Shown piece by piece: positions 1,694 to 9,707 of a stretch of DNA of 64,000 nucleotides. Each line of letters starts with the position of its first letter. The first letter of the stretch is position 1. The notes beneath the pieces are model-generated. The model saw only the letters and a program-made list of their open reading frames with translations, was not told the DNA's origin and did not search any database. A program made the position numbers and the translations under genes. Origin of the DNA: a virus; the IMG/VR virus record IMGVR_UViG_3300005529_000006, positions 1 through 64,000 of that record; one strand, given 5' to 3'.

Positions 1694-2806
1694 TTATTTT
1701 CCTTTAATATAATTAGCGGCTCTGAGTAAGGCCGTTTGATTGTCTTTGAAGAAACCGAGCCCGCGATTGCAATAGTGACACAATAAACCTCTTACCCTCC
1801 CTGTTCCATGATCGTGATCTACAACCAGAGGTTTGCTTTCGAGACAAAGGGCGCATTTTCCCTCTTGCAAAGCCACAAGACTTTCATAATCAGAAAGGGA
1901 GATACCGTATTTTGTCTGGTAATCCCAATCGCGCTTTTTATCTTTGTTCTCTGCGTACCAAAGCTTGGTGCGAATGTTGCAACAGGTTTTACATTGACTG
2001 CCGGTGAACGAAGTTGTGGGTTGCCACATTCCACAACCGTTGCAAATGCGTCCTCCGCTCTCAAGCTCTTTAACTCTTTTGTGTAAAGCTAAAGCGCCCA
2101 AGAACGCTGCACGATCTTCGATATAATCTGTGCGCGTTCGCTCCAACACTTCAAACGCGCCATCTAGTTTGCCTAAGCGTATGATGTAACGACGTTGGAT
2201 TCTATCGTTTGTCTCTTCTTCATACGCATACTGATACGCCGCTGTTTGAAGGACGTACTCAGGGTGAAAGTTCTTTGAACTCTTCCAGTCAATGATGGCA
2301 GAGTAACCGTTAACGAGGGCACGTCCGTCCAATCTCCCGGCAAATCTGTGCCTTCGTGAATAAACAAGTCTTTCGTGCTCAACAAATGAGACTCCGTTCG
2401 CATTGACCCACTTGAGAGCAGAATCGAAACAGTTCCTAACTGGAGTACCTTCGGCGGGAAGAACAGGGTTCTCCCCCTTGAAGTAGGCTTCGATGAGCCT
2501 GTGTGCTTCTGTTCCAACATCGGCTGCCTCCTTTTTGATTTCCCGATGTGCACGCTTCGCGTGTTGATACACTTCCTCCAGATATACACTTGGGTAAGCT
2601 GTATCTGGCTGAATAGCCCCCTTCAAAATCTCCACGGTTTCCTTAACCGCCCATGGAATAAGTGCAGGCTTATTAAGGATTCCAAGTACACTTGTGACAG
2701 AGGGAATCTTGACACGATTCTCGTTGACGACAAGCGAATAACGGTGACGATCTGGGTCAAACTCCAGATGAACGTCACCGTTATAGAGTAGGAAGGATTC
2801 GATCAA
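1694..2806 (-). CDS. PD-(D/E)XK-type nuclease fused to a C-terminal endonuclease VII / HNH domain
   Basis: C-terminus CALCLESKPLVVDHDHGTGRVRGLLCHYCNRGLG matches the EndoVII HNH signature. The upstream part has the D...IDWK pattern and a Cys4 cluster like Cas4/RecB-type nucleases. It sits next to the Sak4-like gene. Confidence 0.6.
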   Translation of the reverse strand: MIESFLLYNGDVHLEFDPDRHRYSLVVNENRVKIPSVTSVLGILNKPALIPWAVKETVEILKGAIQPDTAYPSVYLEEVYQHAKRAHREIKKEAADVGTEAHRLIEAYFKGENPVLPAEGTPVRNCFDSALKWVNANGVSFVEHERLVYSRRHRFAGRLDGRALVNGYSAIIDWKSSKNFHPEYVLQTAAYQYAYEEETNDRIQRRYIIRLGKLDGAFEVLERTRTDYIEDRAAFLGALALHKRVKELESGGRICNGCGMWQPTTSFTGSQCKTCCNIRTKLWYAENKDKKRDWDYQTKYGISLSDYESLVALQEGKCALCLESKPLVVDHDHGTGRVRGLLCHYCNRGLGFFKDNQTALLRAANYIKGK

Positions 2807-3469: not shown

Positions 3470-3488
3470 GAACCCCTTTTTAGGTAGG
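3470..3488 (+). repeat. 19-bp motif copy A (GAACCCCTTTTTAGGTAGG)
   Basis: Exact copy. On the minus strand it reads CCTACC-TAA-AAAGGGGTTC, with the TAA being the stop of 3480..3785; 13 nt upstream of the 3457 start. Confidence 0.8.
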
Positions 3489-3785
3489 ACACAGGCTTCG
3501 TCTTTGCTGCCACAAAGCGGCAGCAGAATAGAAGTGATAATCCTGCAATAAGGGGCCTATTCGCTTTCTCGGTTTTGAGCGACATCTACCTCTCTGATAC
3601 TCCCGTTTCATGTGACATGAGCGACAGACTGGCTCAACATCCAAGGGGTAGTCGTAACCAAGGTAGTGGTCGTAATCTCGCGCTCGACCGCCGCAGTCGG
3701 TGCAAGATAGCGATTTAGCTGGAGGGATCTTCCCTCGCTTTACGTAGTTCTTAATGCGCTCTCGCGCACGTAATTCCTTGGTCAT
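3480..3785 (-). CDS. zinc-finger protein (CTDCGG...CRSCH)
   Basis: ORF with Cys4 motif; ends ...CPT* inside the 19-bp motif. Confidence 0.45.
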   Translation of the reverse strand: MTKELRARERIKNYVKRGKIPPAKSLSCTDCGGRARDYDHYLGYDYPLDVEPVCRSCHMKREYQRGRCRSKPRKRIGPLLQDYHFYSAAALWQQRRSLCPT

Positions 3786-5094: not shown

Positions 5095-5350
5095 CGGCGA
5101 CCCATGTGTGGGCACAACATCACCCAAGTGGTCGATTCTGTCTCTCTCACTACCCCCCTGAACACCTAATTCCAACTTCGAGTGGGCACATCTTTACCCA
5201 GGTGGTAGAATCTGTCACTCTCTCTTTCCCCCTTAACCCCTTTAGAATCCTATAAATAAATAAACACCCAAAAAGAGAGAGACATATCTAACCACTTGGG
5301 CGTAGTTGTGCCTAAATTTCAGGACTTACCACTTGGGCAACTTGTGCCCG
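5095..5350. repeat. repeat cluster: two ~60-bp direct repeats starting GTGGGCACA(A), then two inverted partial copies (ACCACTTGGGC..TTGTGCC)
   Basis: Repeats at about 5108-5165, 5182-5240, 5291-5312 and 5328-5350. The same GGGCACAA core recurs at 56759-56950. Confidence 0.6.
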
Positions 5351-5561
5351 AATCTTGGTAATACTGACAATGATTGTTCCCTTCCGCGTCCAGTCCACCT
5401 CTTTCATTGAACCCGAAGTGTTCACATTCCTCCGGGATGAACTGTTCTCCAGTAGCTTGCAACCACACTTCGTTCATGACCACACCTAGGTGATGCTCCG
5501 TCCAAGAGTGGCCGCAAACACATATGCCCGAACATTCCGGCCCACTGTATCTAGGATTCAC
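5319..5561 (-). CDS. Cys/His-rich small protein, candidate anti-sigma or zinc-binding partner of the sigma factor
   Basis: Its start overlaps the sigma gene end by 11 nt; motif CSGICVCGHSWTEHH. Confidence 0.45.
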   Translation of the reverse strand: MNPRYSGPECSGICVCGHSWTEHHLGVVMNEVWLQATGEQFIPEECEHFGFNERGGLDAEGNNHCQYYQDSGTSCPSGKS

Positions 5562-6078
5562 GTCCCCTCCTCATCTTTTCCGCAATATCAAACCACTTCT
5601 TACACGCCCCACCCACAGTGATCCCCAACCTCTCTCCGATCTCCTCATGCGTGAGCCCTTCCAATCTCATCCTCACCACCAACTTCTCCTCATCATCCAA
5701 GACCTCCATTGCCTGCTCCAACTCCGCCTTTGCAAGCATGGCTCGGCCTTGTCTTTCCTCATCTCCTAATGTCTCCTCCAACGTGTCCACGGATATCTCA
5801 GGGTGCGTGATCTTCTCCCTCAAAGAGAGATTGCACATTTGCGTCACAATCGCCTGGAACCACGTACTAAACAGGCTCTCTCCCCTGAACGTATGGGCCT
5901 TATCAATTGCCTTCCACACGGCATCGGCCACAATATCCGGCCTATACTCCCCCAACTTCAACCAACAAACCGCGAACGCATGTCTGCGGAGGAGAGGAAT
6001 CAGCAAGTCCAACGCCGCTCGTTTCTCCTCCTCAGTCTGCGCACTCTGCCATAACGCGAACGCCTCATTCTCCTTCAT
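5551..6078 (-). CDS. ECF-type sigma-70 family RNA polymerase sigma factor
   Basis: Region 2 (DAVWKAIDKAHTFRGESLFSTWFQAIVTQMCNLSLRE) and region 4 HTH (LEGLTHEEIGERLGITVGGACKKWFDIAEKMR); 175 aa. Confidence 0.75.
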   Translation of the reverse strand: MKENEAFALWQSAQTEEEKRAALDLLIPLLRRHAFAVCWLKLGEYRPDIVADAVWKAIDKAHTFRGESLFSTWFQAIVTQMCNLSLREKITHPEISVDTLEETLGDEERQGRAMLAKAELEQAMEVLDDEEKLVVRMRLEGLTHEEIGERLGITVGGACKKWFDIAEKMRRGRES

Positions 6079-6415
6079 CTAACGGACTGTTCCTGTCCTC
6101 TTTCGGCTCCGTAATCACGATCTCCGTCTGTTTGACTTCGACCTCTGGAGCGAATCCAGCAGGTTTCCCCACCTTCTTTGTACGGATGATCCAAGCAATA
6201 TCCTCCATTTCATATAGACCCGGAGTCCGTTTGTCATCGTAGCTAGTACACTGACTCACCGGCCATTCAACGAAGTAAGGTTGCCACTCAGAGAGCTGAC
6301 CACACCTCACCAACTCTTGACTTGGAGTGACCCCCTTAACAATCGTCGCTTTCCTGCAAGTCCGGCACAGGCTTTCTCCGTCTGGTGCCGTCCCTCCAAC
6401 TACTTTTATGCGCAA
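6065..6415 (-). CDS. hypothetical protein (116 aa)
   Basis: ORF overlapping the sigma gene start by 14 nt. Confidence 0.45.
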   Translation of the reverse strand: MRIKVVGGTAPDGESLCRTCRKATIVKGVTPSQELVRCGQLSEWQPYFVEWPVSQCTSYDDKRTPGLYEMEDIAWIIRTKKVGKPAGFAPEVEVKQTEIVITEPKEDRNSPLDEGE

Positions 6416-6424
6416 AGTTCCCTC

Positions 6425-6658
6425 CTATGCGACTCCTACCCCTTGATAGGCCATGCTCCCCACTGCCACCTGTACCACCTCCTGCCCACAAGTCATACAC
6501 CTGACTGTAAGCACTCCAGTAGAGCTATACGCGACATCCAGCCCCGTACCGGGATGACACTTACTCGTAAGCAGCATCTCTTCATGCTTTCCACCACAGT
6601 GCGTACAGCCTTTGTCCAGCGACCCGTCCAAATCTTCACGAAACTTTATTTTTGCCAT
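6425..6658 (-). CDS. zinc-ribbon protein (CTHCGG...CMTCGQ)
   Basis: ORF with two CxxC pairs. Confidence 0.45.
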   Translation of the reverse strand: MAKIKFREDLDGSLDKGCTHCGGKHEEMLLTSKCHPGTGLDVAYSSTGVLTVRCMTCGQEVVQVAVGSMAYQGVGVA

Positions 6659-6721
6659 GTCTTATCCTTTCCCTGAGGAATCCAATCAAAATTGCTAGGC
6701 CCAAAATAATGAGCCCAATCT

Positions 6722-8149
6722 TCAAAGCACTCCTATGCCAAGCTTGGCGCACAACATATCAAGATCATGGCAATGTATGAACTGCTTGTTCTTCAGTGCT
6801 CCCTTGAAGAGTTCATCCGTCGCCTTCCGGAAAGAGTCATCTCCTGTCCATCCAGTATCCGTTACAAAGTACCTGGGGGCAGGCTGTTTCAATAACCACT
6901 GAAGCGCAGGGAAATCAATATAGTTCTCCCCATACCTGAAGGGTAGTTTTCCTCCGCCTTGATGCTTATAACGTCTGCCTTTCTCGGAGTAGATAGCCAA
7001 GGTGCCGTTGTACTGGATACAAGGGTCCCCCTTGCTATCCTTAACAGCCTTCCCATTCTGCCCCGAGTAATACGCCACCGTACCCAAGGGGATCTTCTCC
7101 GCCACAGCCTGGAGCTGTCCATCAGGAATACTCATACTCCCCGACGCATCAATCAAAACCGTCCCGCCATTCAGATGTTTCGCTCTTCGCAAAAACATCC
7201 TTGGCGGAGCAGGACTAATCGCAAGCGCCAACTTCTTCGCCCGAATCTTCATGCCTGCCATGACCAGCTTCTCGCTTGGCCCCTTGAAGGTGGCTTCACT
7301 GGTGGCCTTCTGCGCCATGTGCTCGATCTTCATGCGCGGGTAACCATCGGGCTTGGACATGATGTCTTTAATCGAACCGCCCGACAGATAGTCCGTGGCG
7401 TCCCCCAGAGAAAGGAAGTTGCTTTTCTCCTCTTCCCTTTTCTTGCCCCCTCCACGTCCCCATCCCCGCGTGGTCATCTTCATCAGCTCTCTGGGGCTTT
7501 GCATCTTGGCCCCAGTGAAGAACTTCTCGATGATTCTCCGAGCCGCCGCCTTGTTGTCTTTCTTCAGGTAGTCCAAAGCAGAATCAATTGCATCCCGCGC
7601 CAATTGCCCGTTCCCAAATAGCGGCATATCTGGGTCATAGAAGTGCCCTAAATCTGTACACTTCTGAAACAACTTATCCGCCAATTCTGGATGAGGAACA
7701 TCCCCTCCCTGCATCATGGCCCTGGCTCTCAAGGCCACAAGAAATGCAGCATCCTTCATGCCCAAAGGCATATACCTGATCGACCGCAAATCCAAGTAAG
7801 CCATGGTCAGCTCGTCCCGCCTGACCGAGCCCCTGGTCTGTGCGCACTTCACATGCAAATACGCATCTTCCACAGCCTGACTCAGGAAACTCTGATCGAC
7901 AGAAGCCTCCCCTGAATAAAGCGCATGAAGAGATTCATGAAGTCGAATTGTTCTGCCCACTGCATCTTCAAAGGTGGGGAGGATGGCCTCTTTCTTTTCC
8001 GGACTATATCCCCCCATAACATTGTTCAGCGGGTCGGCCTGTTTGACCTTGACCTTCGCCCCATCCTCCTTAAGCCTGTCCTTGAAGAGTTCCAACACCT
8101 CATCGACGTTGGACTTCAGGTACTCCGCACCGAAAACCTCTTCACTCAT
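6722..8149 (-). CDS. VWA-domain protein (CobT-like partner of the MoxR ATPase)
   Basis: MIDAS motif VLIDASGSMS in the C-terminal half; 475 aa; coupled by an ATGA overlap to the upstream Cys-rich ORF. Confidence 0.65.
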   Translation of the reverse strand: MSEEVFGAEYLKSNVDEVLELFKDRLKEDGAKVKVKQADPLNNVMGGYSPEKKEAILPTFEDAVGRTIRLHESLHALYSGEASVDQSFLSQAVEDAYLHVKCAQTRGSVRRDELTMAYLDLRSIRYMPLGMKDAAFLVALRARAMMQGGDVPHPELADKLFQKCTDLGHFYDPDMPLFGNGQLARDAIDSALDYLKKDNKAAARRIIEKFFTGAKMQSPRELMKMTTRGWGRGGGKKREEEKSNFLSLGDATDYLSGGSIKDIMSKPDGYPRMKIEHMAQKATSEATFKGPSEKLVMAGMKIRAKKLALAISPAPPRMFLRRAKHLNGGTVLIDASGSMSIPDGQLQAVAEKIPLGTVAYYSGQNGKAVKDSKGDPCIQYNGTLAIYSEKGRRYKHQGGGKLPFRYGENYIDFPALQWLLKQPAPRYFVTDTGWTGDDSFRKATDELFKGALKNKQFIHCHDLDMLCAKLGIGVL

Positions 8150-8727
8150 GACTTCCTCCGTTTGCAGTTGCCATCTTCGTCGAAATGATCTGTTAGATCG
8201 GCGTTAAGCCACCGGTCGCCTTTGCGCCAAAAGGCTCCGGAGCAGTAGCCGCAGTTAGTAGGCCAATAGCCCTTCTTCACCAGCGCCCCCGCAGGAATAT
8301 AACAATCGGGTTCGCCTTCGCTTGGTGCCCAATTATGGTGTTCCCCCCAAGACTTCCCGCAGTTCGCACAAGGCTCCTTCGAGTTCCTGTCATCAAACGT
8401 TGCCCCACAGACCATACATCCCATCCCATCACATACACATGGTTTGTAAATGACTATGGGCTCGAAAGAACAGCCGACCCCTCCTTTTGTTGTATGCCTA
8501 CCTGCATGTTTCCCACACTTCTTACAACGCGCACTGTATGGATAACCGTAGCTGCCAACAGTGAGAGGATCGCCGGAGGGATACTCTTTCCTGTATCCCT
8601 CCGTATCCAGCACAACCACTTCCCCCTCACTTGTTGTCCAGGTCTCAGCTACGTCCCCTAAAAACCGGGGTGAGTCAAATACCCCTTGCCTCCAGGACAC
8701 TTCATGGCCTCTGAACTCCCCGCCCAA
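8146..8727 (-). CDS. Cys-rich protein with repeated CxxCG..W.EHH zinc-binding units
   Basis: CKKCGKHAGRH, CANCGKSWGEHHNW, CGYCSGAFWRKG; sits between the AAA and VWA genes. Confidence 0.45.
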   Translation of the reverse strand: MGGEFRGHEVSWRQGVFDSPRFLGDVAETWTTSEGEVVVLDTEGYRKEYPSGDPLTVGSYGYPYSARCKKCGKHAGRHTTKGGVGCSFEPIVIYKPCVCDGMGCMVCGATFDDRNSKEPCANCGKSWGEHHNWAPSEGEPDCYIPAGALVKKGYWPTNCGYCSGAFWRKGDRWLNADLTDHFDEDGNCKRRKS

Positions 8728-9707
8728 CTATGGTCGTTGGCAGTGAGGCCACAGTTTCTACATTTCACACTTGAGTAATCATTGGGCAGATACCCTTGCT
8801 TCGAGCCCCCATCCTTTCCATGTGGCCCATTCCTATGCGGACAAGTCTGCCCAGGGCCAAACTCCGGATGAGCAAGGTGCGCTCCCTGTTGTTCCCCACA
8901 GTAATAACAGGGGCTGCTCGTATCAGGAATCTTTCCCTTATATCTCGCAGCCGTGGTCAGTACCGACAGAATCTCTTTCCCCGTCGTTCCAAACACACTC
9001 TCCGCGATCTGTGTCTCGCACAGAATCTCCGCCTGCTTGATCTTGGCGAAAGCCCGCATCCGGCGCAGCGTGGGTTTAGTAGAAAACTGCCACGGAGCAG
9101 GAGCCACGTTCTTGAAATGGTTCTTAACCGCCGCAGCTTGCGCCTCATCCAACCCGGTCAGCGCATCGGGATGAGGGTCTTTGGCAATCAAAACCGCCTC
9201 AAACCGATCAATGATGGCTTCCGGCAGACTGGCCAAGTTCGCATTAGTAGTGGCAATCACCACATACCCCTGCTTCGCCTTGACCATCTCTCCGGTGGGG
9301 AGCATAATCTGCGGAGCGTCATCCAGGAACGCATACATCAAAGACGCGATCTCACTTGGATGGTGGTCGATCTCGTCAATGAGCAGAGCCTTCCCTTCCC
9401 GGAGGGCTCTCGTTCCTGGGCCATCAACCCAAACGGTTTCCCCTTCCCGGAGCTGATACATCCCCACAATGTCCTCCACTCCCGTGCCTTCCGTCATGGT
9501 CAGACGGTAATCACTGCGAGTGACCTCTACTGCGGTGCGGCTTTTGCCCGTTCCCGGAGGGCCACAAAGCAAAATCCGGTTGCTCCCGCTATCCACCAGT
9601 GCGGGAAGGGCCTGGTACCATGCCACACTACGTGCAAACTTCGTCGCTTCGCTCATCTTCAGTAGCTCCTTCGATCTCTTCTTTTTCGTTCTCAATGACG
9701 TAGCCAT
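8658..9707 (-). CDS. MoxR/CobS-like AAA+ ATPase (AAA_5) with a Cys/His-rich C-terminal tail
   Basis: Walker A LLCGPPGTGKSRTA, Walker B LLIDEIDH, sensor ATTN, IDRF; C-terminal CYYCGEQQGAHLAH...CRNCGLTANDHSW. Confidence 0.7.
   Translation of the reverse strand: MATSLRTKKKRSKELLKMSEATKFARSVAWYQALPALVDSGSNRILLCGPPGTGKSRTAVEVTRSDYRLTMTEGTGVEDIVGMYQLREGETVWVDGPGTRALREGKALLIDEIDHHPSEIASLMYAFLDDAPQIMLPTGEMVKAKQGYVVIATTNANLASLPEAIIDRFEAVLIAKDPHPDALTGLDEAQAAAVKNHFKNVAPAPWQFSTKPTLRRMRAFAKIKQAEILCETQIAESVFGTTGKEILSVLTTAARYKGKIPDTSSPCYYCGEQQGAHLAHPEFGPGQTCPHRNGPHGKDGGSKQGYLPNDYSSVKCRNCGLTANDHSWAGSSEAMKCPGGKGYLTHPGF

Follow-up and report, generated by a model that had tools for sequence, protein, structure and literature searches.

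A C2HC zinc-knuckle-like unit recurring in the tail of a phage CobS/MoxR-like ATPase and in a neighbouring Cys-rich protein

In jumbo phages, a chaperone-cochaperone pair of the MoxR-vWA kind that includes a peptidase domain has been described and proposed to act in virion assembly (PMC7824862), and cobST clusters of tailed viruses have been proposed to serve cobalt chelation (PMC8651126). In such viral CobS/CobT-like clusters, an AAA_5 ATPase is followed by a protein with an N-terminal HExxH as well as a MIDAS motif (metal-ion-dependent adhesion site). We analysed a 64,000-nucleotide (nt) stretch of phage DNA, positions 1 to 64,000 of IMG/VR record IMGVR_UViG_3300005529_000006 (hereafter the window), which carries a pair of this kind and in which a short Cys/His unit recurs, both in the tail of the ATPase and in a 193-amino-acid (aa) Cys-rich protein encoded next to it. 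The relatives found in cultured phages match in the AAA core only, with 26-34% identity. The clade of the window differs from the described clusters by zinc-finger appendages on the ATPase, and here also by the Cys-rich gene inserted between the two partners.

Two described families resemble the unit itself. The first is the zinc knuckle of the retroviral nucleocapsid type (zf-CCHC, PF00098), which likewise has a C2HC ligand set, a Gly after the second Cys, a small size, and tandem copies on flexible linkers. It reads C-x2-C-x4-H-x4-C, whereas the window units read C-x2-C-x6-H-x7-11-C, with six instead of four residues from the second Cys to the His, and the unit family as a whole has a longer and variable His-to-Cys loop (3-11 residues). 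The models zf-CCHC_4 and zf-CCHC_5 each match one of 17 aligned units below threshold, and no Pfam match of this type was obtained for the window proteins at E<=1. The second is phrog_10623, a phage-borne family of unknown function sharing the core C-x2-C-G-x5-H-x5-8-C-P-x-x-G-x-x-x-F. Its members stand alone, contain a single unit in ~57 aa, and have C-terminally a further conserved stretch (GNF[KR]GF...Y.P), whereas in the window the unit is duplicated, and is either attached to an AAA+ ATPase or built into a larger protein with several sites. The unit thus appears to be catalogued already, unnamed, as phrog_10623; what is new is its duplication on a CobS/MoxR-like ATPase and in the neighbouring orphan.

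The C2HC units of the window

Four units share the pattern C-x2-C-G-x5-H-x7-11-C, two of them (E and F) in the ATPase tail and two (A and C) in the 193-aa protein (Table 1). The spacing C-x2-C-G-x5-H is exact in all four. Unit C is the window copy nearest to the family consensus CxxCGKxWGxH. The fourth Cys is followed by Pro in units E and F, by Ser in unit A, and by Tyr in unit C, and the G-x-aromatic after it is present in unit F and looser in unit C. The region of unit E, over which the BLAST query aligned through residue 290, pairs with the knuckle-bearing C-terminal region of the ATPase homologue P0010. Recent duplication of the units was ruled out, as there is no nucleotide-level repeat between them. 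With the unit alignment as input, AlphaFold2 gave a compact model of unit F with a predicted local distance difference test (pLDDT) score of 71; the 193-aa protein modelled without an alignment scored 38.5, and this model is useless.

The recurrence is not random. In all six frames of the window, the regular expression C..CG.{5}H.{3,11}C matches the four units and one further string, CISCGLESQGHDAGRGC, which lies in an out-of-frame open reading frame (ORF; 7677-7934, minus strand) inside the vWA gene and gives no match with the unit profile. As residue shuffles predict 0.09 matches per window, we regard this string as a chance match, of which a window should yield one in about 9% of cases. Shuffling the two proteins alone, or just their Cys-rich parts, gives 0.001 matches compared with four observed, and units held out of the profile still score 11-24 bits. 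CxxCG being generic, the recurrence might be nothing more than a by-product of Cys-rich composition; this phage does encode many further CxxC proteins, and the out-of-frame match shows that the pattern can arise by chance. We consider this reading exceedingly improbable. The figure of 0.001 against four holds when Cys and His are preserved in the shuffles, and the unit has conserved non-ligand positions and independent members among 1.84 billion proteins and in cultured phages, which composition would not provide.

The initial annotation had counted seven units in three proteins. The strings that it quoted are present in their places on the minus strand, and four units in two proteins stood the profile comparison; the other three were not confirmed as copies of it. 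One of the three lies in the 80-aa protein discussed below. The remaining two, CMVCGATF.. and CGYCSGAFWRKG, belong to the 193-aa protein and score 2.8 and 0.6 bits against the profile, respectively (Table 1). The former is part of the cluster CVCDGMGCMVC, which from ligand counting is probably a different four-Cys metal site, and the latter corresponds to CGYC...H...C, a possible fourth metal site of different spacing. By the same counting, the 13 Cys of the 193-aa protein, together with some of its His, could make up four sites, namely the two units, the CxCx4CxxC cluster, and a CxxC-x18-H-x5-C site.

The start of the 193-aa gene is ambiguous. It may be TTG 8727, GTG 8700, or GTG 8619/8613 preceded by GAGGGGG, and the public gene call, of 184 aa, begins at GTG 8700. 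No homologue other than itself was found for the protein in 5.8 billion proteins, and IMG/VR scans with this protein and with the ATPase gave no matches. The ATPase gene ends in GGT TTT TAG (8658-8666, minus strand), a stop through which the -1 frame, that of the 193-aa ORF, stays open. Were tRNA-Phe to slip by -1 on the five T's, reading would go on as TTT TTA GGG GAC... in the 193-aa frame; this candidate slip would fuse the two knuckles of the ATPase to four further putative sites. The stop codon is unlikely to stem from an assembly error, as the Logan assembly of run SRR5581483, though possibly built from the same reads, is 100% identical over 11 kb with identical gene calls.

Relatives of the unit in phage proteins

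An alignment of five units (A1) was used for an exhaustive profile search against 1.84 billion representative proteins. At E<=1e-3 it retrieved, in addition to the two proteins of the window, seven others, all of them with 2-3 copies. For example, P0156 carries CTNCGKRWGEHKGENCPDNKGLF and CAECGERYGDHSGSDPPKCPDGTGGW, P0160 carries CARCGRTWGKHISDECPDRAGSF twice, and a copy in P0161 reads CATCGKTWGEHLGGIYC. In the resulting alignment of 17 units (A3), exactly five residues separate the Gly and the His without exception. The non-ligand positions held in common are [KR] after the Gly, W/F at Gly+3, G at Gly+4, a Pro after the last Cys, and the G-x-aromatic. The initial annotation had named, as an outcome that would refute it, a profile search with nothing but low-complexity hits; the search did not turn out in this way. 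The contigs of P0156 and P0160 look phage-like; their small ORFs are tightly packed, and genes like NAMPT or NeuB are present. P0156 has a weak, sub-threshold HTH_38 match, and one unit-bearing protein ends in a C-terminal hydrophobic stretch that looks membrane-anchor-like by eye.

We then scanned IMG/VR and 185,579 GTDB species genomes with a degenerate DNA pattern for C-x2-C-G-x2-W-G-x-H-x4-C-P. The IMG/VR scan gave seven stretches. The four in-frame ones come from three different proteins, two of which are fusions to DUF3310 (L014 4734-5240 and L018 4411-4833), with the unit at the C-terminus in one and at the N-terminus in the other; DUF3310 is an uncharacterised Pfam domain, found here on phage contigs. 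The GTDB scan gave 13 matches and none was unit-like by eye, six being broken by stop codons and seven lying in stretches rich in Arg and Pro, such as GC-rich DNA seems to yield when translated in the wrong frame. With in-frame matches in IMG/VR and no real one in GTDB, the narrow form of the unit therefore appears viral. The proposal of a portable metal-binding or interaction module thus stood as regards portability, as far as sequence can tell: the unit occurs in unrelated phage proteins, at either terminus, and as a stand-alone protein.

The unit is absent from Pfam and the PDB. No Pfam model matches more than two of the 17 units, all below threshold, and a sequence profile search of the PDB returned generic CxxCG knuckles only (best E 0.15). 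A tblastn search of cultured phages with the units gave nothing usable. The 56-position profile of phrog_10623 (PHROGs v4) matches eight of the 17 units; the window matches it weakly, the 193-aa protein at E 0.0011 and unit F at E 0.074. Its member gp054 of Erwinia phage vB_EamP-S6 (YP_007005790.1; E 1.8e-28), which was reached via a non-significant BFVD structural hit, reads CKHCGKAEGMHQTTEHGQKCPLGK. With this protein as tblastn query, 114 cultured phage records were found, mainly of phAPEC8-like and 121Q-like coliphages, and the matches listed are all unannotated or annotated as hypothetical. Among the coliphage proteins, phAPEC8 gp068 (AFU62641.1) reads CMHCGKSFGDHQARTFNCPRKGRGNFKGF and Escherichia phage 121Q gp487 (YP_009102074.1) reads CKNCGKDKGKHSVQGMACPNPGRGNFRGF. 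Against a unit profile built without them, the three phage proteins score 16.6-27.7 bits, compared with 12.6 bits for the best of 69 decoy CxxC fingers. Membership of the window units in phrog_10623 is thus supported indirectly, but in both directions.

Two other classes were considered and rejected. The unit, in which CxxCG...(E/D)HH had prompted the comparison, is not an HNH/His-Me finger nuclease: it has no downstream Asn and no second CxxC/CxxH pair within it, the window proteins have no HNH Pfam match, and the HH is not conserved in the unit family, which keeps the first His only. A component of a defence system was considered with PADLOC and rejected as well.

The ATPase-vWA pair and the proposed role of the unit

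The ATPase is 349 aa long from the first ATG (332 aa in the public gene call). Its AAA_5-type P-loop domain (PF07728) covers residues 45-169, and its AAA core ends near residue 255 and is followed by a tail of ~95 aa with two C2HC units. It matches phrog_249, annotated as 'porphyrin biosynthesis', at E 1.8e-18, and cyanophage genes annotated as CobS at 26-29% identity. The genes of the ATPase and the 475-aa protein make up a conserved pair that is also present in the related loci L001-L003. In the 475-aa protein, an HExxH (RLHESLHAL) lies N-terminally and a MIDAS motif (IDASGSMS), the DxSxS of which is invariant in four homologues, C-terminally. It has no Pfam match and no match to a VWA model, so that its vWA fold is putative. 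The HExxH is retained in L001 and L002 and lost in L003, the closest relative (RLQVAVRVQHS); therefore, the peptidase-like site may be dispensable. In L001-L003 the genes of the pair are adjacent, with no 193-aa gene between them, so this gene is an insertion specific to the lineage of the window.

Homologues of the ATPase carry zinc-finger appendages at the opposite end. An N-terminal extension of at least 60 aa is present in 68 of 120 homologues, and it is Cys-rich in 59 of these 68. A common finger type, with the spacing C-x2-C-x~21-H-x2-C, is similar to LIM finger 1, the CCHC half with which a LIM domain begins (PDB 2mbv, E 7e-4). Its sequence pattern is FPARYxGxCxxCGxxIxxGQxITWSRRExGKAYHADC. 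A second N-terminal type reads CKYCGxxGLQW...H.C, and P0115 has a classical CCHC knuckle. These N-terminal fingers are borne on long, low-complexity linkers rich in Ala, Pro, and Thr (P0003-P0121; L001, L002). The window ATPase has a short N-terminus only, and its knuckles are at the C-terminus instead; they share the apparent role of the LIM-like finger while differing from it in spacing and position, and the LIM-like finger is not the unit. Other arrangements are found in P0010, which has a LIM-like N-terminal finger plus one C-terminal knuckle, and in P0026, which has a knuckle at its N-terminus. The appendage seems to be swapped freely among homologous ATPases. Swapping in kind and in position, on flexible linkers, is the behaviour to be expected if zinc modules serve recruitment rather than form parts of the motor.

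We consider it probable that the recurring motif is a mobile mini-domain, a variant of the C2HC zinc knuckle that serves as a zinc-stabilised, tethered recognition or adaptor module. The mini-domain would comprise ~30-35 residues with the signature h-C-x2-C-G-[KR]-x-[WFA]-[GN]-x-H-x(3-11)-C-P-x-x-G-x-[FWL]. Each copy is predicted to hold one Zn2+ by three Cys and one His, folding a peptide that would be too small for a hydrophobic core. Ligand counting predicts two zinc ions in the ATPase tail, with its two copies on a flexible C-terminal segment, and four in the orphan protein, with its two copies and two other putative sites. The knuckles would stand in for the N-terminal fingers of the homologues, which are Cys-rich and in many cases LIM-like. 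As about half of the homologous ATPases carry such fingers instead, a tethered recognition or adaptor role is the most likely one. The module would thereby guide the neighbouring protein and the remodelling machine of ATPase and vWA protein to a ligand, for which a protein is a likelier candidate than a nucleic acid.

The nature of this ligand is where a second explanation has to be weighed. The units may be nucleic-acid-binding knuckles like the CCHC knuckles of the retroviral nucleocapsid, by which the two proteins would be tethered to DNA or RNA via the conserved Trp/Phe and basic flanks. The CxxCG[KR], the conserved aromatic residue, and the C2HC ligand set do resemble zinc knuckles, the carrier P0156 has its weak HTH match, and a basic charge (+3 to +6) is seen in unit A and in the phage proteins that stand alone. 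However, the spacing is unlike that of zf-CCHC, no Pfam knuckle model matches more than one of the 17 units, and a neutral or acidic charge, as low as -5, is found in many of them. Since the net charges of the units run from -5 to +6, generic nucleic-acid binding is argued against. We therefore regard this explanation as unlikely for the family, while a nucleic-acid role is possible for its basic members.

The pair also invites an explanation by metal handling, in which the Cys-rich protein and the ATPase tail would store Co, Zn, or Fe and deliver it to a chelatase-like motor of the CobS/CobT type. A pair of this kind has been linked to cobalt insertion (PMC8651126), and the 193-aa gene lies exactly between the ATPase and vWA genes. 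Relatives of the pair, however, do without the 193-aa protein, and the unit is also found in non-chelatase proteins, namely the DUF3310 fusions and stand-alone early-region proteins. Because the unit occurs in such unrelated proteins, delivery of metal to the motor is very unlikely. Four-ligand C2HC knuckles are typically structural sites, which also counts against a metal-handling role.

A bolder form of the adaptor reading is that the unit is a phage-specific address tag, steering effectors as varied as the MoxR/CobS-type ATPase, the DUF3310 proteins, the weak-HTH protein, and stand-alone inhibitors to one host target. The ATPase tail and the 193-aa protein would then make up one multivalent array, perhaps partly joined by the -1 slip on U UUU UAG. 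We put this forward as a speculation that is quite unlikely to be correct.

The 80-aa protein, neighbouring genes and implications

The third protein in which the initial annotation had seen the unit is the 80-aa protein encoded after the sigma gene. Its string CVCGHSWTEHH scores 9.5 bits against the unit profile, which is decoy level; the classical CCHC knuckle of a distant ATPase homologue, which is unrelated, scores 8.9 bits. The spacing is CxC, not CxxC, and an hhalign comparison of CxCGHSWxxHH with the unit profile gave a probability of 31% over 15 columns with a one-residue gap. The 80-aa protein has 32 homologues with 52-68% identity over the alignment, and these family members score 3-9 bits, again decoy level. 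Membership in the unit family was accordingly rejected. The protein belongs to a separate conserved small family, and CVCGHSWTEHH is a local look-alike. Residues C14, C16, G17, W20, H23, H24, C46, H64, and C65 are invariant in this family, as are E39, E45, E47, N52, E53, and D70, while C10 and C75 are not conserved. The invariant acidic and Asn residues, which stand besides four Cys and three to four His, hint at more than a structural metal site. The family is tightly conserved and consists of proteins of about 75-100 aa, with members in L006 (7575-7808), L007 (3889-4170), and L008 (8001-8234). Pfam and PHROGs gave no match for the 80-aa protein, and the PDB none of significance. It was also considered as a zinc-binding anti-sigma factor (ZAS) and rejected, as the motif HxxxCxxC is missing (the invariant residues run C-x-C-G-H...HH...C...HC), the family member of L006 is not adjacent to sigma, and no sigma gene was recognised beside those of L007 and L008.

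These results bear on the model of the initial annotation, in which the units of all three proteins (ATPase tail, 193-aa and 80-aa) would be docking domains for each other or for a common hub, coupling the partner of the sigma factor to the AAA/vWA machine. The genes do form one co-directional block, with the 80-aa gene overlapping the stop codon of the sigma gene, and the 80-aa protein and unit C have a local similarity, CG[HK]SWxEHH (pairwise P 5e-4). Against this stand the decoy-level scores, the CxC spacing, and the separate invariant residues of the 80-aa family. In L006, moreover, the homologue lies directly upstream of a gene for a uracil-DNA glycosylase (UDG)-PolA fusion and ~5 kb from the sigma gene, and in L007 and L008 no called neighbour of the homologue has a sigma Pfam match or a BLAST match to the window sigma factor. 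The adjacency not being seen in L006-L008, the description as the protein after the sigma gene holds for this genome only. AAA-vWA relatives without the 193-aa protein speak against the model as well. Taken together, we find a docking of the sigma partner to the ATPase-vWA machine highly improbable.

All genes of this region are on the minus strand and are transcribed in the order AAA_5 ATPase, 193-aa Cys-rich ORF, 475-aa protein, two small Cys-containing ORFs, sigma factor of the extracytoplasmic function (ECF) type, and 80-aa ORF (Table 1). The two small ORFs have no match above the curated threshold of any family, the 77-aa ORF having sub-threshold Pfam zinc-ribbon matches only, and the unit profile matches neither.

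Table 1. Features of the locus, in window positions; bit scores are against the unit profile (A3 for unit E)
Feature	Position	Strand	Sequence or motif	Remarks
Unit E	8841..8909	-	CYYCGEQQGAHLAHPEFGPGQTC(P), CYYCGEQQGAH..C	ATPase tail residues 267-289; 34.8 bits
Unit F	8697..8762	-	CRNCGLTANDHSWAGSSEAMKC(PGGKGYL), CRNCGLTANDH..C	ATPase tail residues 316-337; 45.6 bits
Unit A	8470..8526	-	CKKCGKHAGRHTTKGGVGC, CKKCGKHAGRH..C	193-aa protein residues 68-86; 35.3 bits
Unit C	8302..8370	-	CANCGKSWGEHHNWAPSEGEPDC, CANCGKSWGEHH..C	193-aa protein residues 120-142; 46.1 bits; phrog_10623 E 0.0011
Cys cluster, probably a different site	8407..8439	-	CVCDGMGCMVC (C97, C99, C104, C107)	2.8 bits
Possible fourth site	8164..8253	-	CGYC...H...C (C159, C162, H182, C188)	0.6 bits
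CobS/MoxR-like AAA+ ATPase	8658..9707	-		Pfam AAA_5 E 5e-18; phrog_16448, phrog_249; 120 homologues
193-aa Cys-rich orphan protein	8146..8727	-		between ATPase and vWA genes; 13 Cys
475-aa CobT-like partner	6722..8149	-	HExxH + vWA-type MIDAS motif	alignment with three homologues
77-aa ORF	6425..6658	-	CTHCGGKH...CMTCG	zinc-ribbon-like pattern
116-aa ORF	6065..6415	-	CRTC...C...C	
ECF-type sigma-70 family factor	5551..6078	-		TIGR02937 E 1e-16; Sigma70_r4
80-aa protein	5319..5561	-	CVCGHSWTEHH (5490-5522)	overlaps end of ECF-type sigma gene

Read by eye, other ORFs of the window suggest terminase, tail genes, integrases, and DNA polymerase, and BLAST against the related contig L006 bears out the PolA and integrase assignments. 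A 370-aa protein (1694-2806, minus strand) resembles a PD-(D/E)XK-type protein of L006, and by eye its end shows an endonuclease VII/His-Me-like motif (CALC...VVDHDH...CHYCN). A 101-aa ORF (3480-3785, minus strand) has an HNH-like CTDCGG...DYDH...CRSCH. The CxxCG...DH strings of these two ORFs are unrelated to the C2HC unit. Shine-Dalgarno sequences are clear at gene starts, such as GGAGGAAG ahead of the vWA start (8150-8160), and ATGA-type stop/start overlaps are in use. Gene starts of these kinds are a poor fit to a host from the Bacteroidota, the group whose proteomes the initial annotation had proposed to search.

Tiny unnamed Cys-rich proteins abound in phages, and one of them now stands out as a mini-domain that is coherent, mobile, and marked by a fixed signature. 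This links a PHROG orphan, known from such well-studied coliphages as the phAPEC8-like and 121Q-like ones, to fusions with an AAA+ remodelling ATPase and with DUF3310. Should the module prove to be a structural zinc knuckle with varied partners only, this would be a useful annotation and no more. As the module can be obtained from a cultured E. coli phage, it offers an experimental handle for finding the ligand, and the identity of that ligand would hint at the target of the viral CobS/CobT-like (MoxR-vWA) pairs.

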